Below, one piece after another: positions 3,859 through 29,572 of a DNA stretch of 46,320 nt (the stretch's first letter is position 1; every line of letters starts with the position of its first letter). Location of the stretch: the IMG/VR virus record IMGVR_UViG_2645727562_000022, positions 1-46,320 of that record, one strand, 5' to 3'. The notes beneath the pieces were generated by a model. That model made no database searches and was not told the DNA's origin. It worked only from the letters and a program-made list of their open reading frames with translations. The position numbers and the translations under genes were made by a program. The DNA is from a virus. Its lineage: Duplodnaviria > Heunggongvirae > Uroviricota > Caudoviricetes.

Positions 3859-4361
3859 TGGGCGTTACCTCCATCATTCGCGAACTCACCATGAATCTCT
3901 GCCCGAGCTTTTTTGATCGCCTCAGCATCATCCTGCTTATCAGAAAAGGAGCCAACGTTGATGTCCTTTCCTTCATACATAATTGATGCCTTCCATTTGT
4001 TAGATTTCCGGCACCATGAAACGCCCTTTATCCCGGAAGTATTGGTGGACTGTATCTTCCTGTTAAGCGCGTTTTGCCTTAAAGAGACAATACGAAGATT
4101 GGAGATCCTGTTGTCTTTCCTGTCACCATTAATGTGGTCCATTATTCCTTCTGGAAACTCTCCTTATACGTATAGCCATGCGAGCCTATGAGAAAGATAA
4201 ACAACGCCGTCAACGCAAAACCGCAGGTAGCCATGTGAGTTAGTTGTTCCGGCGATATCGCCTTTAATGGCTCTGCTGGATGTAGACTTTATTCTTGTGA
4301 AGACGCCTGTATAGCTGTTGTAGTGAAATAACTCCTTAAGCCGAGATTGAGTTAGCGTCAT
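3855..4361 (-). pseudogene. HNH homing endonuclease (AP2-domain type) interrupted by an in-frame TAA
   Basis: ORFs 4164-4385 and 3855-4142 are in the same frame, separated by TAA at 4164-4166. Read-through gives [31 protein letters not shown], colinear with the intact paralog at 8610-9095 where the stop position is a Tyr. Confidence 0.65.
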
Positions 4362-4534
4362 TTCTTCGCCCTCTGGTTTAACCACGCTGTCAGGAATTTG
4401 TTCTCGTTCACGCTTGGGAATGAGTTTTTCTTCAGCATTTCTTCGCGTGGGATGTCGTTGATGGGTTTGAATCGGTGGCGTGCGACAATCTCCTCAGGGG
4501 AGAAGCCCTGAAGTGCGCATGAGTTTCCAATCAT
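4358..4534 (-). CDS. Small hypothetical protein (58 aa)
   Basis: Internal ATG at 4534 with GAGG RBS; its TGA stop overlaps the HNH ATG (ATGA). Preferred over the 109-aa ORF-track reading 4358-4687. Confidence 0.35.
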   Translation of the reverse strand: MIGNSCALQGFSPEEIVARHRFKPINDIPREEMLKKNSFPSVNENKFLTAWLNQRAKK

Positions 4535-7656: not shown

Positions 7657-8525
7657 GGTACGCCTTTATCCGCGACAACAGCCGTTGCTGGCCTGTTCGT
7701 TTGCTCTGTCGGGTTCTGGATGTCCATCCGAGTGGATTTTATTTCTGGCTTCAGCAGCCACATTCGCAGCGTCACCAGACAGATCAGATGCTGACCGGGC
7801 AAATCAAACAGTTCTGGCTTGAGTCTGGCTGCGTCTATGGTTATCGCAAGATCCATCTCGATCTGCGTGATACCGGACAGCAGTGCGGAGTGAACCGGGT
7901 CTGGCGGCTGATGAAGCGTGCCGGAATAAAAGCTCAGGTTGGGTACCGTAGCCCACGAGCACGTAAAGGCGAAGCCAGTATCGTGACACCCAACAGGCTC
8001 CAGCGGCAGTTCAATCCGGACTCACCGGATGAGCGTTGGGTGACGGACATAACCTACATCCGAACCCACGAAGGCTGGCTGTATCTGGCCGTGGTGGTTG
8101 ACCTGTTCTCCCGAAAAGTTATCGGCTGGTCAATGCAACCCCGCATGACAAAAGAGATTGTCCTGAACGCCTTACTTATGGCGGTGTGGAGGCGTAATCC
8201 TCAAAAGCAGGTACTGGTTCACTCTGATCAGGGTAGTCAGTACACGAGCCATGAGTGGCAGTCGTTCCTGAAATCACACGGTCTGGAAGGCAGCATGAGT
8301 CGTCGCGGTAACTGCCACGACAACGCGGTTGCGGAAAGCTTTTTCCAGCTACTGAAACGCGAACGGATTAAGAAAAGGATCTACGGAACGAGAGACGAAG
8401 CCAGAAGCGATATTTTTGATTATATCGAAATGTTTTATAACAGTAAGCGTCGGCATGGTTCGAGCGAGCAGATGCCACCGGCTGAATATGAAAACCTATA
8501 TTATCAACGGCTCAGAAGTGTCTAG
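7617..8525 (+). CDS. IS3-family transposase OrfB (DDE), expressed as OrfAB by -1 frameshift
   Basis: Slippery A-run at 7617-7623; the -1 frame continues KKSRGVLRKA... into the 274-aa ORF, which has a DDE catalytic triad; the standalone ORF begins at TTG. Confidence 0.8.
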   Translation, partial: KKSRGVLRKAVRLRYAFIRDNSRCWPVRLLCRVLDVHPSGFYFWLQQPHSQRHQTDQMLTGQIKQFWLESGCVYGYRKIHLDLRDTGQQCGVNRVWRLMKRAGIKAQVGYRSPRARKGEASIVTPNRLQRQFNPDSPDERWVTDITYIRTHEGWLYLAVVVDLFSRKVIGWSMQPRMTKEIVLNALLMAVWRRNPQKQVLVHSDQGSQYTSHEWQSFLKSHGLEGSMSRRGNCHDNAVAESFFQLLKRERIKKRIYGTRDEARSDIFDYIEMFYNSKRRHGSSEQMPPAEYENLYYQRLRSV

Positions 8526-8609: not shown

Positions 8610-9095
8610 TCATCCTGCATTGGAGAAATCTCCGTGAAGATTTTTAGCGGCTATGCAATATGCTTTATGGGCATCCTCTGGGTTATCAAACACACCAAGA
8701 TGATGCTTTATTCCATTTGCCCGTATTTGACCAACCCACTTACGCTGACGTTTTGAGTAGTAAACTCCTTTGTACCCGCAGCCATTTTTTTGAGCTGACC
8801 TGTTTCTGCTGTTTTCTGCCAGCGTCGCAAGCCTGAGGTTGCAAATTCTGTTGTCTGTGCGGTTACCATTTATGTGATCAATAACGTCAGGTGGCCAGAA
8901 TCCATAAGTAATTAGCCAAGCTAGTCTGTGTGCGAAATATTTTACTCCGTTTATCTCTATAGCAACGTGTCTTGTCATATCCCTAGTCCCTGCACGCTCT
9001 AGCGTTGATCTCTTTCCAAGGCCGGGCTTCCATTTGAACAACCCAGTATCAGGGTTATATTCGAGAAGTGAATTTACCTCTTCTAAATTAACCAT
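8610..9095 (-). CDS. HNH homing endonuclease with AP2 domain (intact)
   Basis: YFAHRLAWL...IDHINGNRTDNRICNLR is the HNH_3 motif, followed by an AP2-like GYKGVYYSKRQRKWVGQI; start overlaps the N stop (TAATG). Confidence 0.8.
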   Translation of the reverse strand: MVNLEEVNSLLEYNPDTGLFKWKPGLGKRSTLERAGTRDMTRHVAIEINGVKYFAHRLAWLITYGFWPPDVIDHINGNRTDNRICNLRLATLAENSRNRSAQKNGCGYKGVYYSKRQRKWVGQIRANGIKHHLGVFDNPEDAHKAYCIAAKNLHGDFSNAG

Positions 9096-23893: not shown

Positions 23894-25426
23894 GTGTGGC
23901 CGTTTAAAAAGAAACAAGTCGCCGCGCCTGAGCCGGTGAAAGAACAAAAGCCTGAGATGAAAATCCGGGCTGAGGCGGTAGCAGAAATTCAGGCCAAGCC
24001 ACCTCGCGAGATTGAACAGTACAAGCCACCAAGCGGAGTTATCCCTGAGAGCATAGAGAAAGGCATACTGGCGATGGACTCAACGCCATACGCCGCTCTG
24101 AACGAAGCTTATATGGGATATACCTATGGCTATCCTGACAGCTTCCCCGGCTATCCATACCTGGCTACGCTCGCTCAAAAGCCTGAGTATCGCAAGATGG
24201 TGGGAACCATCGCTGAAGAGATGACCCGTAAGTGGATAAAGCTTAAGACGGTCGGTGATGACGATAAAGCAGAGCGAGTCAAACAACTCTACGCTGCAAT
24301 GGAAAAGTTCAAGGTTAAGGACCGATTTCGCGAAGCAGCAGAGCATGACGGCTACTTTGGCGGCGGACAGATTTATATCGATGTTCAGTCAGCCAGGGGT
24401 GTGTCTGCATGGACTGACCCGGTAGAGCTTGGGTCAAAGCTGTTCCTGTCTGACAAGAAGATTAAGAAAGGCAGCCTCAAGGGATTTACCGTTATCGAGC
24501 CAGTATGGACTTACCCGGGCGTCTACAACACAGATAACCCGATGAGCCCTGACTTCTACAAACCGACAGAATGGTTTGTGATGGCTAAGACGGTCAATGC
24601 CAGCCGTATGATGGACTTCGTATCTCGCGAGGTGCCTGACCTTCTTAAGGCTGCATACAACTTCCGTGGGCTGAGCCTGACGCAAATTGCCGAGCCATAC
24701 GTCAATAACTGGCTAAGAACGCGAGACAGTGTTAGCGACCTGATTCACTCGTTCACCATTCCTGTTCTCTCAACCAATATGGGGACAGTGTTACAAGGCG
24801 GTGGAGCAGAGTCGCTTATCAAGCGCCTTCAGATGCTCAATCAGTGTCGGGATAATCGCGGCGCTTTCGCAGTAGATAACACGCCAAACCAGGAAGAAAA
24901 GGCTGAGTTCATTAGCGCACCTCTTGGTGGTCTTGATGCCTTACAGGCGCAGGCACAGGAGCAAATGGCAGCAGTTTCCAGCATTCCTCTGGTTAAGCTG
25001 CTAGGCATCTCACCTGCTGGCCTTAACGCATCATCAGATGGCGAGATTCGAGTCTTCTACGACTATATTCACGCCCTGCAGCAATCCATCTTCAAAGACA
25101 ACCTGAAGCGCGTTCTGGACATCATCCAGCTTTCAGAGTTTGGCGACATCGACCCGGATATCTACTTCGAGTTTGAGCCTCTCTACGAGATGACCGAGAA
25201 AGAGAAAGCGGAAATCCGCAAGATTGACGCTGACACCGACGCGGTTAACGTAGCAACCGGTGCGCTGACGGGTAATGAGATTCGGCAGAAGATCGCAAAT
25301 GACCCTGACAGCCCATACCACTCACTGGACCTAAGCGATGACATCGAAATCGAAGACGACTACGAAGACGATGACCAGCGGGAAGAAGAAATCGACGCAG
25401 CAAACGCTGAGAGCAATTCATCCTAA
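23894..25426 (+). CDS. Portal protein (DUF1073-like)
   Basis: 510 aa directly after terL; AGGAG RBS with GTG start; acidic C-terminal tail. Confidence 0.7.
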   Translation: MWPFKKKQVAAPEPVKEQKPEMKIRAEAVAEIQAKPPREIEQYKPPSGVIPESIEKGILAMDSTPYAALNEAYMGYTYGYPDSFPGYPYLATLAQKPEYRKMVGTIAEEMTRKWIKLKTVGDDDKAERVKQLYAAMEKFKVKDRFREAAEHDGYFGGGQIYIDVQSARGVSAWTDPVELGSKLFLSDKKIKKGSLKGFTVIEPVWTYPGVYNTDNPMSPDFYKPTEWFVMAKTVNASRMMDFVSREVPDLLKAAYNFRGLSLTQIAEPYVNNWLRTRDSVSDLIHSFTIPVLSTNMGTVLQGGGAESLIKRLQMLNQCRDNRGAFAVDNTPNQEEKAEFISAPLGGLDALQAQAQEQMAAVSSIPLVKLLGISPAGLNASSDGEIRVFYDYIHALQQSIFKDNLKRVLDIIQLSEFGDIDPDIYFEFEPLYEMTEKEKAEIRKIDADTDAVNVATGALTGNEIRQKIANDPDSPYHSLDLSDDIEIEDDYEDDDQREEEIDAANAESNSS

Positions 25427-26168
25427 TGCCGGTGTTGAGGCGTGGTATCGAAGACAGCTAGACAACCACATCAGAGAGATGCAGAAGTCCGTTGTGTACT
25501 GGCTAACCGCTAATTACAAAGCAAGCGGTGCAGCGGTGGCAATGGACGCATCTCCTGCTGTGTTTATGCGCGATGCCATGAAGAAGCTCGCTAAGCGATG
25601 GACAAAGGCATTCGACAACGTATCTCAGAAGCTGGCCGAAAGGTTTGCCGGTGATGCGATGAAGAATACTGATGTATCTCTCCATAAAGCGCTTGAAACG
25701 GCAGGCTTCACGGTTGAGTTCAAGATGACAGCGCCGATGAATAACGCACTGCAGGCAACTATTGCAGAGAACGTTGGGCTGATACGCTCAATCCCTGAGA
25801 AGTATTTCATTGAGGTTGAGGGGCTGGTTATGCGCTCGGTTGCACGAGGTCGTGACCTTTCTTACCTCACTGACGAGCTTCAGAATCGCTATGGCATCAC
25901 GCGCAGGCGTGCGGCATTAATCGCACGCGATCAGAACAACAAGGCAACCTCAGTAATGCAGGCTGCAAGGCAGCAATCACTTGGTATCACTCAAGGCGTC
26001 TGGAAGCACTCGCATGCTGGCAAAGAACCACGACCATCGCACGTTAAAGCTGATGGAAAGGTGTTTGAGCTAAGCAAGGGAATGTACCTCGATGGCAAAT
26101 GGGTGATGCCTGGCGAGGAAATCAACTGCCGTTGCACCTGGTCACCAGTCATACCAGGCCTCTCGTAA
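25338..26168 (+). CDS. Head morphogenesis protein (SPP1 gp7 / Mu F family)
   Basis: Resembles the Mu F / SPP1 gp7 family by position and sequence. True start uncertain: ORF-track ATG overlaps the portal by 89 nt; an in-frame ATG near 25479 is an alternative. Confidence 0.75.
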   Translation: MTSKSKTTTKTMTSGKKKSTQQTLRAIHPNAGVEAWYRRQLDNHIREMQKSVVYWLTANYKASGAAVAMDASPAVFMRDAMKKLAKRWTKAFDNVSQKLAERFAGDAMKNTDVSLHKALETAGFTVEFKMTAPMNNALQATIAENVGLIRSIPEKYFIEVEGLVMRSVARGRDLSYLTDELQNRYGITRRRAALIARDQNNKATSVMQAARQQSLGITQGVWKHSHAGKEPRPSHVKADGKVFELSKGMYLDGKWVMPGEEINCRCTWSPVIPGLS

Positions 26169-26230
26169 ATAATCAAAATCAATCAAGGTCGCTAAGGCGG
26201 CCTTTTTTATTGCCATAAGCGGGGAAGTCT

Positions 26231-28054
26231 ATGGACGAACTCGAATCCTACTCGCTAGCCGAGGATGAGGATAAGTGGATAACCATAAATGGTTCCCACG
26301 TCAAAATTGATGAAAATGGAGATGTTGTTGCTGGCGCTGAAGGGAAGATTAATAGCAATAAAGATGAAAAGAAATCAGCCGGGGCAAAACTATCAGCCAA
26401 TGAAAAGTCAGCCATTTCCAGTTACTCAGGTGACAATTTCTTAAAAATAAACTCAGATCTTCGTAAAGGTAAAGATGAAGACCCTGATGTGGCACGTATT
26501 GACTCAGCCATTAGCAAGGGAAGTTTAGAAGGTGGAACGCTTTACCGAGGAATGAGCAGGGAGGACGCAAAAAAACTGTTCCCAGGCGGAGATATTAAAA
26601 AGGGAATGGTTGTTTCAGACCCCGCTTTTCTTTCCACATCTAAAGAAAAAAAAATCGCCGGTATGTTCAGCATCGGCGGTGTAATGCTCCAAATAGAAAC
26701 AAATCAAGGAGACAAGGGGCTGGATGTTACTGGTCTTTCCAGCAACAAGCATGAGGATGAAACATTACTTCCACGCAATGCAAAAATGGAAGTGATTGGA
26801 GTGCATCCTCCAAAATCACCGGGTCAGCCGGTGACAATAAAGGTCAGATACAAAAGCGAGGAAAAAAGACCCGCAATGGACGGGATTACAGAAAGCCTGG
26901 CATTTGACCGCGCTTCAATGCGCTCGTTTGATGGCAACGGCAGGCTTCAGGTTAAGTTAAGCAATATCAGCAAGGCGAATGTCTGCCCCTACTTCGGGAG
27001 AGAGATTCCAGGCGCTGAAAAGCTCGGGTTAGAGCCAGATAAGATTTATCATTTATGGCGACACCCTGATGAACTGAAGAAAGCCGCTGCAACATTCAAC
27101 AATATCCCCCTTTTATCAATCCATACACCTGACTTCCCCGGCGACCCACCACGCGAATATCGCGTTGGCGTAACGCATTCAAATGCAGACTTTGACGGAA
27201 CGTATCTGACAAACGGCTTATCGGTTTGGGACGACTCCGCAATCGCCGGTATCGAGACGGAAGAGCAGGAAGAATTGTCTTCGTCGTACCAATACGTCGC
27301 TGACATGACCCCCGGAGTTACACCGAATGGAGAGCCGTATGACGGCATCATGCGGGACATCATCGGGAACCACGTAGCGCTGGTTGAAAGAGGCCGCGCA
27401 GGAAGCGACGTATTGGTCGCAGATTCATTACCCCCGGAGTTAATGCTCATGAGCAAACGTAAAGCCGCGATTATTCGCGCAACGCTGAAGCCGTTACTGG
27501 CAGCTGATGCTGATTTGGAGGCTGAAGTACGGAAGGCGCTTCTGGCGCTGGATGAAGCCGAAAAAGAAGACGAGAAAGAAAAGAAACCGGCTGAAGACGA
27601 GGATGACGACAAGGACGACGAGAAGAAGAAAACCGCTGACGATGAAGATGACGAAGACAGCGATGACAAAAAGAAAAAGCCAGCCGAAGACGAAGACGAT
27701 GAAGACGACAAAGTCTCCAAAACGGCAATGGACAGTGCGATTCGCTTAGCTGCGGACAGCGCAACCAAACGTGCGGCGGAGAACTTCCGAAAAGTGCGTG
27801 AAGCTGAGCAGGCTGTGCGCCCACTTATTGGCGATGTCGTTGCAATGGACTCCGCTGATGATGTCTACCGCACTGCACTTGAGCAGGCTGGCGTGGATAT
27901 CGAAGGCGTTCATCCTTCAGCCTTCCCTAAGATGGTCAAAATGGCTATCGAGCAGCAGAACAACAAACGCCCTGTCATTGCGCAGGATTCCGCATCTCAC
28001 AGCGAATTTGAGAAAGCTTTCCCGACCGCTGGCAAACTGAAACGAGGTTTCTAA
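26231..28054 (+). CDS. Head scaffold-like protein with an N-terminal ADP-ribosyltransferase (R-S-E type) module
   Basis: Residues about 60-200: [16 protein letters not shown], aromatic-Arg LYR106G, S135-T136-S137, E175-D-E177 in canonical order and spacing; then an acidic KDE-rich linker (res about 440-500) and a scaffold-like C-terminus; sits between head morphogenesis protein and capsid genes. Confidence 0.7.
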
Positions 28055-28055
28055 C

Positions 28056-28538
28056 ATGGCAGGTTTTCAGAGTGTAATTAACCAATACCCAGCACCGGGT
28101 GTTGAAGGTGGCTTTGCTAGCACCAACCCTCACGCCACTTTCCTGGCTGGCGAAGCAGCATTGGTTGCTGGCACTAGCGGTCTGACCGTAGGTCGCTTTG
28201 CATGGGCTGTCGATGGTGTTGCATCAAATACCGGCACCGGCGCTCCTTCTGGCTTCGTCCATCGCGATGGTCAGGCATCAATCACTGTATGGCTTGGTGA
28301 GGCTTCAATGCTCATTCAGCCAGGCCGTGAAGTGACCCTGATGACCGCTGGAGACTTCTGGGCACGTACCGCCACTGCAGCAACTCGCGGACAGAAAATC
28401 TTTGCTGTGCTTGCTGACGGCACCATTAAGACCGGTGCTGCAGGAGCAACCATTTCCGGCGCAGTCGAAACGCCTTTCTATGCTGGTAGCGCTTGTGATG
28501 CAGGCGAACTGGTCAAAATCAGCACCTGGAGCAAGTAA
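28056..28538 (+). CDS. Head structural/decoration protein (inferred)
   Basis: 160-aa Gly/Ala/Thr-rich protein directly before the major capsid gene; call is positional. Confidence 0.45.
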
Positions 28539-29572
28539 TGAACGAATTTCAGAAACACTATTCCGCAGCTAGCGGCAAATACGGCATCATTCTGCCGGGC
28601 GCGAAAGACTACCTGAAGCCTGACTTCGCAGAAAACTTCCAGTTGGCGATGGACGCCCAGCCAACCATGGTTACTGCGAACAACGCAGGTATCCCGGCGT
28701 ATTTCACCAACTACGTTGATCCAGAGCTGATTCGCGTTCTGGTCACCCCAATGAAGGCAGCAGAAATCATTGGTGAAGTGAAGAAAGGCGACTGGACTAC
28801 CCTGACCGCGCAGTTCCCAATCGTTGAAAGCACCGGTGAGACCAGCTCATATGGAGACTTCAACAACAACGGCATGACCGCAGCGAACGTTAACTGGGTT
28901 CCTCGCCAGTCTTACCATTACCAGACTCATACCCGCTGGGGTGAACGTGAGCTGGATATGTACGGCGCTGCGCGTATCGGTTACGCAGCAGAGCTTAACG
29001 TAGCATCTGCTCTGGTGCTGAATAAGTTCCAGAACAAGTCCTACTTCTTCGGTATCGATGGTCTGATGAACTATGGCTTGCTTAACGACCCTTCTTTAAC
29101 AGCATCAATCACGCCAAATGCAACAGGCGCTGGCGGAGCTGTAACCTGGTCATCCAAAGATGGTCAGGCGGTATATGACGACATCGTTAAGCTGTACGGT
29201 CAGCTGGTTTCTCAAACCAAAGGTCTGATTGAGCGTACCGACCCAATGACTCTTGCCATGTCTCCTTCTGCGGAAGTGAACCTGACCAAGACCAACATGT
29301 ACAACGTCAACGTGTCTGACCTGCTGAAGAAAAACTTCCCTAACCTGCGTGTTGAAACTGCAGTTGAGTATTCAACTGATGCGGGTGAGCTCGTGCAACT
29401 GATTGCTGATCGTCTTGGCGAACAGGATACCGCTTATGCAGCCTTCACCGAGAAGATGCGTGCGCACGCAGTTGTGGTTGAAGAATCCAGCTGGAAGCAG
29501 AAGAAGTCAGGCGGCACATGGGGTGCAATCATTCGTCAACCGCTGGGCATTGCCAGCATGATCGGGGTTTAA
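28538..29572 (+). CDS. Major capsid protein
   Basis: 344 aa in the canonical position after scaffold/decoration genes; 1-nt overlap with the upstream gene. Confidence 0.65.

Follow-up and report, generated by a model that had tools for sequence, protein, structure and literature searches.

The window analysed here, 46,320 nucleotides from a virus of the Caudoviricetes (positions 1 to 46,320 of IMG/VR record IMGVR_UViG_2645727562_000022), carries in its head module a gene that joins a mono-ADP-ribosyltransferase (ART) domain of the R-S-ExE type, a member of the VIP2/C3/ExoS/Alt superfamily, as N-terminal extension to a putative prohead protease-scaffold protein, a homolog of Pa193 gp24. We consider it probable that this gene encodes a capsid-internal cargo enzyme, which is built into the head and delivered together with the DNA.

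Organisation of the gene and its surroundings

The ART gene is a complete open reading frame on the plus strand, with an ATG start, 607 encoded residues and a stop codon (Table 1). As the original prediction had it, it occupies the gene slot between head morphogenesis protein and capsid, with the Mu F-like (MuF) gene upstream and the genes for the cement protein and the major capsid protein (MCP) downstream. MuF is encoded by an ORF apart from the ART gene, and 62 nt, including a hairpin, lie between the MuF stop and the ART start. The Shine-Dalgarno (SD)-like element in front of this start is kept in all aligned loci that carry the ART. The gene belongs to the late operon and follows the holin/lysozyme/Rz and terminase genes. 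The element had been called a temperate lambdoid phage; an integrase and an S24 repressor bear out that it is temperate, but its lambdoid character is confined to the early genes, the virion module being E217/Pa193-like with a DUF3383 sheath-type tail protein. Current annotations of the fusion read only 'DUF2213 domain-containing protein' or, misleadingly, 'Vis precursor', and NCBIfam has no model for the 607-aa ART-DUF2213 protein. A Ser-rich antisense ORF at 27049-27768 is spurious and is explained by the KDE-rich linker.

Table 1. Features of the ART gene and its neighbours (window coordinates).
Feature	Position	Strand	Remarks
Portal protein gene	23894-25426	+	PF06381, E=6e-93
Mu F-like head morphogenesis gene	25338-26168	+	PF04233, E=3e-14; phrog_324; TAA stop 26166-26168
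Low-GC ART cargo cassette	26156-26897	+	Hairpin, RBS, leader, ART domain, linker
Terminator-like hairpin and T-run	26185-26213	+	8-bp stem, TAAG loop
Shine-Dalgarno-like GGGGAAG	26221-26227	+	3 nt 5' of ATG 26231
ART-carrier ORF	26231-28054	+	Leader, ART, linker, protease-fold DUF2213, acidic linker, helical tail
'WIT' leader	26273-26350	+	Residues 15-40
ART catalytic domain	26381-26854	+	Residues ~51-208
R106	26546-26548	+
S135-T136-S137	26633-26641	+
E175-D-E177	26753-26761	+
Predicted disordered junction	26855-26911	+	Residues ~209-227; M216 ATG 26876-26878
DUF2213 (PF09979, 'Pa193_gp24') domain	26912-27430	+	Prohead serine-protease (T4 gp21/assemblin) fold, putative
H298	27122-27124	+	Invariant
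S350	27278-27280	+	Invariant
H381	27371-27373	+	Invariant
KDE-rich acidic disordered linker	27575-27712	+	Residues ~449-494
C-terminal helical scaffold-like tail	27713-28051	+	Residues ~495-607
Cement/minor capsid protein gene; major capsid protein gene	28056-28538; 28538-29572	+	PF23982/PF22758, phrog_264

The N-terminal domain is an R-S-E ADP-ribosyltransferase

The N-terminal part had been proposed to be an ART of the R-S-E type, and Pfam profile, predicted fold and residue conservation all identify it as a genuine domain of this class. The profile PF03496 (ADPrib_exo_Tox) matched residues 44-193 with 65.3 bits against a cutoff of 23.4 (E=6e-18), far beyond chance, while the score of PF01129 barely exceeded its cutoff. 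Searched against the PDB, a profile of the ART family matched Vip2 best (5e-26), then CdtA, iota Ia, ExoT, C3 and Vis. AlphaFold2 modelled residues 51-210 with pLDDT 94-98 in an ART fold, for which Foldseek returned Plx2A, C3bot, Lmo0066, Certhrax, VIP2, ExoS and Vis (E=7.5e-12 to 1e-10, probability 1.0). The match to the 'Alt-like' family phrog_802 (E=1.5e-6) covers residues 48-153 only; in PDB and Pfam the domain has its nearer relatives in VIP2, ExoT and C3 rather than in Alt.

The motif set read from the letters was found in place and in order: a 14-residue motif at 65-78, LYRG at 104-107 (containing R106), STS at 135-137 and EDE at 175-177. Y105-R106, S135-T136-S137 and E175-D-E177 follow one another as aromatic-Arg, S-T-S and (E/Q)-x-E, as the R-S-E class requires. 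Conservation of the catalytic positions, on which the assignment hinged, is complete: R106, S135, E175 and E177, together with Y65, are invariant in 97/97 diverse relatives and in 121/121 fusion homologs. By likeness to characterised enzymes, ExE instead of QxE implies a predicted specificity for arginine.

The domain might nevertheless be an inert passenger, a decaying leftover of a recombination accident that is now functionless; the exact window protein is on record from one contig, and the cassette is compositionally foreign. This is contradicted by the invariance of the catalytic residues in 121 fusions, by a reading frame intact in hundreds of contigs from Klebsiella species and Yersinia, and by the comparison with a diverged fusion (L009), in which the ART has a pN of 0.065 at a saturated pS of 0.77 (pN/pS 0.085). 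Judged from these signs of selection, the passenger explanation is effectively refuted, and the ART appears to be a selected, real variant rather than a decaying one.

The carrier is a Pa193 gp24 homolog with a protease-type fold

The remainder of the protein had been taken for a scaffold or prohead-core protein. This holds for its scaffold-like tail, but the carrier is not simply a scaffold, as at its N-terminus lies a domain folded like the prohead proteases of the T4 gp21/assemblin type. The carrier matches PF09979 (DUF2213) with 157 bits (threshold 22) and Pa193 gp24 (9b40_G) with E=4.4e-5 as a single sequence and 3.9e-23 as a profile (A4), the latter match being full-length over residues 4-465. 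The domain is assemblin-like in fold, and neither the 39 diverse nor the 121 close sequences show any change at H298, S350 or H381. Because hhalign of profile A4 against T4 gp21 was not significant (probability 0.3), a residue-level link from the carrier to T4 gp21 was dropped, and the assignment leans on the fold and the invariant residues only; from these, the carrier domain appears to be a putative prohead protease.

The KDE-rich acidic linker and helical C-terminus noted at first sight were recovered in the structure model. In the 392-aa carrier model, pLDDT falls below 50 at its residues 234-279, the acidic linker, which corresponds to disorder at residues 449-494 of the fusion; after renumbering, the tail helices span 497-533, 542-552 and 562-577. 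The homologous region in gp24, the scaffolding protein of Pa193, is its C-terminal part. The helix-turn-helix of Pa193 (residues 286-326) could not be mapped onto the window protein, the region aligning to the poorly conserved acidic linker. Pa193 gp24 was detected by LC-MS in mature virions and seen beneath the five-fold vertices, only a 41-residue fragment being retained; it was taken as a scaffold, and a protease domain was not described (PMC11456595). A protease domain of the gp21/assemblin fold appears to be part of what is called the 'putative scaffolding protein' in phages of the Pa193/E217 type.

The ART cassette and its junction with the carrier

The impression that the ART segment is richer in AT than its flanks proved right: GC content is 0.41-0.45 over 26150-26900 and 0.50-0.54 on either side. 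The proposal that the domain was grafted onto an older head gene is likewise borne out by the existence of a near-identical prophage without the ART, whose carrier start codon aligns with M216. This prophage, in E. coli 1506, is 92-95% identical on both flanks; BLAST homology to it stops at 26155 and restarts at 26898, about 0.74 kb being absent there. The internal ATG, placed near residue 217 by the original prediction, is in frame and corresponds to the ancestral carrier start, but its residue number is 216.

The cassette is 97% identical to Klebsiella prophage loci, in which the protease domain and MuF are only 70% and 77% identical, respectively, and this disparity shows that it was moved by recombination. 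Compared with a Klebsiella-type locus (L011), identity reaches 94-100% across the cassette and 60-86% beyond the tract 26000-26900. The segment 26000-26160 is more than 90% identical to both parental types; the conserved 3' end of MuF is the left recombination arm, and the cassette entered the slot between the MuF and protease genes by homologous recombination. The hairpin at its 5' edge is kept in every ART-carrying locus and in two of them (L009, L090) lies directly 3' of a small membrane-protein ORF; in the window it is a remnant or boundary element. A promoter of the cassette's own, as in a classic moron, was rejected, as no sigma-70-like site was found in 25000-29000 and the hairpin belongs to the small membrane-protein ORF in L009/L090.

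M216 and the exact in-frame junction are kept in 121/121 fusions, and the native start codons of ART-less DUF2213 genes fall on M216 in the alignments. The junction is modelled with low confidence: pLDDT is 59 over residues 211-215, where the ART model ends, and in the carrier model it is 34 for the first 10 residues and 69 for the next 10. The sole SD-like element before M216 is a weak GAGGA 14 nt upstream; L090 has a poor AAGAG and no convincing SD at the junction, and an independent fusion (P0136) has no junction Met. On these grounds an internal translation start at M216 was not upheld as established. The junction around M216 is a candidate site of protease cleavage and/or internal initiation, and translation from M216 may also yield the 392-aa carrier without the ART, which would leave only some scaffold copies bearing the enzyme.

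A polymorphic cargo slot with shared leaders

The order portal-MuF-[slot]-DUF2213-cement-MCP was found in 81 of the 82 loci with both MuF and DUF2213 detected; the one departure is a contig that breaks off early. The slot itself is polymorphic and holds ART, Nudix, LPD3, DUF5710 and unidentified domains, fused or free, with leader motifs in common. The closest relatives of the ART (45-58% identity) are fused to the portal, to MuF or to either end of DUF2213, or are free in the slot; given these partners, the feature they share is residence inside the procapsid. In the portal fusions P0135, P0137, P0143, P0147, P0153 and P0155 the ART sits on the portal C-terminus, Orisa03 has a portal-ART of 703 aa, and P0140 and P0220 are MuF-ART fusions of the same subfamily. 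One protein of 1006 aa (P0145) has the architecture ART-Nudix-X-DUF2213 and, with at least two effector domains, qualifies as a polyvalent protein; the window protein, with a single effector domain, does not fall under this definition (Iyer et al. 2017).

Two short leader motifs recur at the N-termini of the slot cargoes. The first, the WIT leader, follows the pattern W-I-T-x(n)-G-x-H-V-x-(I/L)-x(2-4)-G-x-(I/V)-x(1-3)-G, often followed by GGKFNG, and is predicted to form a small three-stranded beta element (AlphaFold2 strands 16-19, 22-26 and 32-35 in the window protein, pLDDT 72-83). It is common to free and fused slot cargoes, including the free ARTs P0004-P0007, and its 20 occurrences in related loci all lie in the slot. 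The second follows the pattern D/E-x-D/K-H-P-R-x(3)-G-x-F-G. A tentative reading, to which we give less than even weight, is that the gap between MuF and protease is a dedicated, recombination-driven cargo-loading locus in a large group of enterobacterial and other proteobacterial phages, with the two leaders as load/release signals. The leaders would then be capsid-targeting and/or prohead-protease processing signals and so correspond, in temperate phages, to the capsid-targeting sequence of T4. If this holds, any leader-bearing protein could enter heads and reach cells, and the window fusion would be an allele in which a leader-bearing cargo is additionally welded to the protease-scaffold.

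The ART-DUF2213 fusion is common in Klebsiella prophages, including those of clinical Klebsiella genomes, and was not found by megablast or tblastn in 50,697 isolated phage records. Among isolated phages, the carrier occurs without ART in Klebsiella phages, and ART relatives occur only as portal fusions in four Pseudomonas phages. Near-identical head modules without ART are present in E. coli 1506 and in Enterobacter and Klebsiella phages.

Proposed packaging and delivery of the ART, and alternative roles

If the ART is a capsid cargo, the scaffold tail of the carrier would bring it into the assembling procapsid. Upon protease activation, the disordered junction of 20 residues near M216 may be cut, or the ART may stay on the carrier; in either case it would be kept in the DNA-filled head and exit together with the genome at the next infection. 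There it would meet cytoplasmic NAD+ and ADP-ribosylate arginines of host proteins, precedents for targets being the transcription or translation machinery and defence proteins. A 24-kDa ART on every scaffold copy would load the head heavily, which counts against this reading, as does the terminator-like hairpin just 5' of the gene.

The enzyme might instead act late inside the producing cell, like T4 ModA/ModB, and modify proteins of the host or the phage there, in which case the fusion would only provide late co-expression and encapsidated copies would be incidental. Its place in the late operon means that the protein is made in NAD+-containing cytoplasm before assembly, and the lack of an immunity gene among the ORFs scanned would be tolerable in a cell that soon lyses. 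Co-expression, however, needs no in-frame fusion, let alone one whose precise junction is kept in 121/121 homologs, and members of the same ART subfamily have been joined independently to the portal, to MuF and to either end of DUF2213, which points to physical co-localisation in the procapsid. We regard such a late intracellular role as unlikely.

Slightly less probable still is a polymorphic toxin tied to lysogeny, by which virions released from lysogens would deliver the ART against non-lysogenic competitors, the lysogens being shielded by superinfection immunity or a further factor. An integrase and an S24 repressor mark the element as a temperate prophage, the fusion abounds in prophages and is absent among isolated phages, and the slot is polymorphic, with cassettes swapped by recombination as in polymorphic toxin loci; MuF toxins, moreover, are confined to temperate phages (PMC5576092). 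Yet the defining MuF-toxin architecture of an N-terminal MuF and a C-terminal toxin in one polypeptide is lacking here, and a small downstream immunity ORF is impossible, the ART being fused straight, in frame, to the next gene, DUF2213. No antidote gene of the ARH, Macro or NADAR type was detected when 30 window ORFs and the small ORFs beside free ARTs were scanned with Pfam, and tblastn found no homologs of the L003 small ORFs in the window. Toxin and cargo enzyme would share the same mode of delivery and differ only in the beneficiary.

Finally, the ART could act on the phage itself, modifying head proteins (scaffold, protease, MCP) for maturation, or phage DNA. It is physically tethered to protease and scaffold. 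DNA is the target of some R-S-E ARTs, and nucleic acids are modified by DarT and by R-S-E enzymes of the pierisin type. That virion components might be substrates of head-module ARTs has been suggested by Iyer et al. (PMC9503650). The ART is, however, dispensable for assembly, as near-identical head modules function without it, and the alternative slot cargoes (Nudix, LPD3, DUF5710) have no plausible common assembly role; we consider self-modification highly improbable. Delivery of the ART as a capsid cargo is the reading that we favour.

Relation to known systems

The arrangement had been proposed as a delivery solution different from that of T4 Alt. An ART is indeed fused to a scaffold-type protein, but the novelty was overstated. 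ARTs of the Alt/VIP2 family fused to MuF or portal in head modules have been described and predicted to be packaged and injected (PMC9503650, PMC5576092); EFV, a MuF-ART of E. faecalis, has demonstrated activity (PMC5576092); and Nudix-DUF2213 and LPD3-DUF2213 architectures are recorded (PMC8770471). None of the papers retrieved describes an ART cargo on a DUF2213/Pa193 gp24 carrier. The window fusion is a variant of a described strategy and not a new principle.

With T4 Alt the window protein shares an R-S-E ART among late/virion genes and, as proposed here, a route through the prohead core, gp21-type processing and ejection with the DNA. Alt, however, is a separate protein of 682 aa, which carries a short capsid-targeting sequence and is cut by gp21 in trans, whereas the window ART is covalently fused to the gp21-fold protease/scaffold of a temperate phage, resembles VIP2, C3 and ExoT more closely than Alt, and is only predicted to be packaged and injected. 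The MuF toxins, EFV and the fusions of Iyer et al. likewise combine a temperate phage, an effector on a head-internal protein, polymorphism, exchange by recombination and predicted delivery with the DNA. In the window, by contrast, MuF has an ORF of its own, the effector lies at the N-terminus instead of the C-terminus, and it is carried by a high-copy transient core protease-scaffold and not by a low-copy portal-associated protein; no immunity ORF follows.

Pa193 gp24 is a full-length homolog of the carrier in the same gene position before cement and MCP, and N-terminal cargo is recurrent on such carriers; Pa193 gp24 itself and most family members lack the ART. In lambda C/Nu3, Mu I/Z, P2 gpO and T4 gp21/gp21', too, one gene encodes a protease domain and, behind it, a scaffold-like tail. 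The annotation of T4 gene 21 includes an alternate start, and M216 could give a shorter product in the window; in those systems, however, the nested product is a scaffold or shortened protease, with no foreign enzyme. In engineered P22 scaffold-fusion nanoreactors, an enzyme is placed on the scaffold N-terminus, and the C-terminal helices bind the coat interior and drive encapsidation. The P22 nanoreactors are artificial. The window protein is a natural fusion that contains a protease-fold domain as well, and its presumed destination is a host cell.

Natural controls are available in prophages without the cassette but with 92-95% identical flanks, in diverged modules that share the cassette at 97% identity, and in loci where the same position holds other cargoes, so that a direct test of packaging rules and host targets is feasible. 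If the ART is encapsidated and released by way of the protease-scaffold, leader, cargo, cleavable linker, protease and scaffold would together make up a compact natural design for head loading, one that would bear on phage engineering and on how temperate phages of Klebsiella and Enterobacter condition newly infected cells.

ADP-ribosyltransferase domain

The 607-aa protein is encoded by a genuine, ATG-initiated open reading frame in the gene order terminase, portal (PF06381), Mu F-like gene (PF04233, MuF), ART gene, cement (E217 gp24/XM1 gp53-type) and major capsid, as expected from its predicted slot between head morphogenesis and capsid genes. The motifs that had suggested an R-S-E type ADP-ribosyltransferase (ART) were all found in place (residues 65-78; LYRG 104-107 with R106; STS 135-137; EDE 175-177), and the internal methionine anticipated near residue 217 is M216. 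The profile check bore out the family assignment: PF03496 (ADPrib_exo_Tox) covers residues 44-193 with 65.3 bits in Pfam, against a curated cutoff of 23.4 bits. PDB searches matched ExoT, ExoS and Vis with the single ART sequence, and Vip2 (5e-26) with a profile of 36 ART-family sequences, which further matched Lmo0066, CdtA, C3larvin, ExoT, iota Ia, Vis, Certhrax, SpvB, C2-I and C3. The AlphaFold2 model from a 36-sequence alignment showed a pLDDT of 94-98 across residues 51-210, and Foldseek returned Plx2A, C3bot, Lmo0066, Certhrax, VIP2, ExoS and Vis with probability 1.0, in line with the fold originally proposed. Among 97 aligned ART relatives taken from a library of 1.84 billion proteins, Y65, R106, S135, E175 and E177 were invariant and N74, R78 and R182 nearly so. 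The ExE catalytic motif is the form of arginine-specific enzymes in the R-S-E superfamily. By family and predicted fold, the protein carries a genuine ADP-ribosyltransferase domain at its N-terminus.

The catalytic residues were all kept in 121 of 121 fusion proteins. Compared with the diverged fusion of the related head-module locus L009, the ART displayed 86 synonymous and 25 non-synonymous differences (pS 0.77, synonymous sites saturated), and pN/pS was 0.085 for the ART, 0.139 for the protease domain and 0.186 for the tail. At the codon level, the fused ART is under selection, with a constraint at least equal to that on protease domain and tail. The selection data contradict the view that the ART is an inert passenger, which is excluded on this basis.

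Features of the window and of related loci
Feature	Locus	Position	Strand	Remark
IS-type transposase	window	7701-8525	+	rve integrase core with HTH_21; early region
HNH-AP2 homing-endonuclease-like gene	window	8610-9095	-	early region
Longest MuF ORF	window	25338-26168		25338-25426 overlaps portal gene end (89 nt)
Terminator-like hairpin	window	26185-26213
Terminator-like hairpin	L009	~4340-4370
Terminator-like hairpin	L090	2358-2386
ART gene	window	26231-28054	+	607 aa
WIT leader	window	26273-26350		residues 15-40
DUF2213 domain	window	26912-27430
Antisense ORF	window	27049-27768	-	239 aa, Ser/Phe-rich; overlaps carrier acidic linker
Antisense ORF	window	27471-27824	-	117 aa, Ser/Phe-rich; overlaps carrier acidic linker
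Two small ORFs	L003-L005	6708-7219		54 and 93 aa; between free ART and DUF2213 gene
MuF gene, apparently split	L084	3187-4983		intein-like insert

Predicted prohead protease and scaffold carrier

In the carrier, PF09979 (DUF2213, now Pa193_gp24) matches residues 231-399 with 157 bits, and residues 219-605 fall in phrog_2229, the 'head maturation protease' family of PHROGs. The C-terminal 392 aa directly matched 9b40_G, the Pa193 gp24 'scaffolding protein' (4.4e-5), and a 39-sequence carrier profile matched it over nearly the full chain (3.9e-23). In the AlphaFold2 model of this part, the DUF2213 domain (pLDDT ~90-97) adopts the protease fold of T4 gp21 and herpesvirus assemblin; the stretch rich in KDE (449-494 in full-length numbering) is disordered, and helices follow. 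H298, S350 and H381 were unchanged in all 39 diverse and all 121 close homologs. The assemblin triad is of the His/Ser/His type. Since profile-sequence comparison of the carrier with gp21 gave no significant match, the protease call is one of predicted fold and conserved residues, not of residue-level similarity. At that level the carrier is assigned as a prohead protease plus scaffold, so that the earlier designation as a scaffold held for the tail but not for the whole.

LC-MS detected gp24 in mature Pa193 virions (PMC11456595), and its residues 286-326 were modelled as a pentameric helix-turn-helix beneath the capsid five-fold vertices (PMC11456595). Because the DUF2213 domain combines the gp21/assemblin fold with an invariant His/Ser/His, the missing head-maturation protease is probably part of the Pa193/E217-type 'scaffolds'; the DUF2213 family already bears this label in PHROGs, and the Pa193 structural paper (PMC11456595) does not label the gp24 family as a protease.

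The two antisense ORFs over the linker were rejected as genes; they are a by-product of the KDE-coding repeat, which is rich in GAn/AAG.

Graft and recombination

The prophage of E. coli 1506, a close relative without ART, is 92% identical to the window upstream, 89% downstream and 94.5% over the matched part of a MuF-to-DUF2213 query. Its 395-aa DUF2213 gene starts 12 nt past MuF, homology to the window ends at 26155 and picks up again at 26898, and its DUF2213 ATG aligns exactly with that of M216, which supports the proposed grafting of the domain onto an older gene. The suspected AT-richness of the segment was also real (GC 0.41-0.45 over 26150-26900 versus 0.50-0.54 in both flanks). In E. 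coli 1506, MuF is annotated as a 690-nt gene with a later start, which makes it probable that the window MuF, too, truly begins at some point after 25338.

Relative to the Klebsiella-type ART-positive locus L011, identity was 92-100% over 26000-26900 and 60-86% outside, while the ART-less E. coli type lacks the cassette and is 90-100% identical outside 26160-26897. At the codon level, comparison with L011, L012 and L037 gave 97% nucleotide identity for the ART (pS 0.08), ~70% for the protease domain (pS ~0.7) and ~77% for MuF. This near-identity across diverged flanks shows that a cassette of ~0.74 kb moved by homologous recombination, with one crossover in the conserved MuF 3' end and the other in the first DUF2213 codons (...LAFDRAS...). 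The identical 607-aa protein was recorded from one contig and shares its 90%-identity cluster with ART-less proteins of 395 aa from Enterobacter, Cronobacter and E. coli; the window is thus a rare recombinant in which an Enterobacter-type head module carries a Klebsiella-type cassette. The ART-DUF2213 fusion itself is common: at least 120 clusters (604-619 aa, 83-98% identity), some on about 200 contigs, occur in Klebsiella pneumoniae, K. michiganensis, K. grimontii, K. quasipneumoniae, K. variicola, K. oxytoca and Yersinia enterocolitica, annotated as 'DUF2213 domain-containing protein' or 'Putative NAD(+)--arginine ADP-ribosyltransferase Vis precursor'.

In every ART-positive locus the ART start is preceded, at the cassette 5' edge, by a terminator-like hairpin of almost the same sequence (AAGGTCGC-TAAG-GCGGCCTT plus T-run). 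In L009 and L090 it lies directly 3' of a small ORF, hydrophobic and of membrane type, that follows MuF and is absent from the window. It is curious that a terminator should sit within a late operon immediately ahead of a gene that may be toxic.

The window is a temperate prophage with lambdoid early and lysis genes (integrase, RecT, S24 repressor, DnaB, NinB, NinX, RusA, holin, lysozyme, Rz); to this extent it is the temperate lambdoid phage initially described, but its virion module is of the E217/Pa193 type, with a DUF3383 tail protein. The transposase and homing-endonuclease-like genes sit between recombination genes and repressor. Pfam scans of 30 window ORFs revealed no ARH, Macro or other antidote candidate. 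Overall, the observation behind the original prediction is confirmed and its interpretation partly supported.

Cargo slot and leader motifs

The closest ART relatives (45-58% identity) differ in architecture, and the common trait of all fusion partners is their location inside the procapsid.

Placement of the ART among its closest relatives
Placement	Examples
Free-standing between MuF and DUF2213	P0004 in L003-L005
Portal C-terminus	P0135, P0137, P0143, P0147, P0153, P0155; Pseudomonas phage Orisa03 (annotated 'hypothetical')
Inside or before MuF	P0140, P0220
DUF2213 N-terminus, independent insertion with carrier's first residues duplicated	P0136
Polyvalent ART-Nudix-X-DUF2213 protein	P0145
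DUF2213 domain without scaffold tail	P0148, L008
DUF2213 C-terminus	P0251

The order portal-MuF-slot-DUF2213-cement-major capsid was conserved in the 82 loci with both MuF and DUF2213, apart from one whose contig stops short, the slot being closed (<120 nt) in 41 and occupied in the other 41. Non-ART cargoes on the DUF2213 N-terminus comprised Nudix (L064, L072), LPD3 (L053, L061), DUF5710-containing regions (L058, L071) and several unknowns; other slot cargoes were free ORFs. Slot cargoes open with either of two short motifs, neither covered by any Pfam family. The 'WIT' leader (W-I-T-x(n)-G-x-H-V-x-I/L-x(2-4)-G-x-I/V-x(1-3)-G, often followed by GGKFNG) begins many unrelated cargoes, free and fused alike; all 20 of its occurrences in the loci examined fell within the slot, and it is predicted in the window as a small three-stranded sheet (pLDDT 72-83). 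The second, D/E-x-D/K-HPR-x3-G-x-F-G, opens other slot cargoes and is also present at portal C-terminal extensions. Together, the two motifs were found in the slots of L015, L044, L049, L057, L058, L060, L062, L066 and L071 and in P0004-P0007, P0146 and P0190. Both could serve as signals for capsid targeting or for processing; that slot and leaders form a general capsid-loading system is a possibility, though less likely than not.

Several arrangements stood out. P0145, a metagenomic representative of 1006 aa, consists of DHPR leader, R-S-E ART, Nudix, DHPR leader, unknown domain, DUF2213 protease, acidic linker and tail. The two small ORFs of L003-L005 had no Pfam match and no counterpart in the window, and may encode immunity or adaptor proteins. 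The insert in the MuF gene of L084 (~337 aa, C-FPGDSV... to ...SHN|C) divides the conserved C-terminal 'EEINC|RCT'.

Proposed delivery and relation to known systems

T4 Alt is the paradigm for head-packaged phage ARTs, and protease/scaffold genes commonly encode nested products. Given the scaffold tail and the homology to a virion-resident protein, delivery of the ART via the head with phage DNA is plausible. The carrier would bring the ART into the procapsid; upon protease activation, the junction around M216, which is disordered over about 20 residues (pLDDT 34-69 on both sides), would be cleaved, or the ART would stay tethered. Retained in the filled head, where NAD+ would be absent, the ART would be ejected with the DNA and then modify host-protein arginines early in infection, similar to T4 Alt. 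An unfused carrier, possibly initiated at M216, would resolve the copy-number problem, but translation signals for this start are weak. Alternatively, the ART may act only in the phage-producing cell, serve as a competition toxin or modify the virion's own components.

MuF polymorphic toxins were defined by Jamet et al. (PMC5576092); ARTs make up about 14%, among them EFV, whose activity was shown by experiment (PMC5576092). Iyer et al. (PMC9503650) reported that ARTs of the Alt/VIP2 family are frequently joined to MuF or portal, or lie in the head module; they predicted packaging for about 44% of phage ARTs and also recorded fusions of Nudix with the capsid-processing serine peptidase. DUF2213 architectures with Nudix, LPD3 and portal are on record in Pfam (PMC8770471). 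The literature searched, supplements of Iyer et al. aside, yielded no description of an ART on a DUF2213 carrier. With a separate MuF ORF, an N-terminal effector and no immunity ORF, the window protein falls outside the MuF-toxin architecture, and its single effector sets it apart from polyvalent proteins. It is best described as belonging to the known head-module ARTs of phages, which are presumably packaged in the head, but with a different anchor and orientation. The ART cargo on a prohead protease-scaffold is real, selected and mobile.
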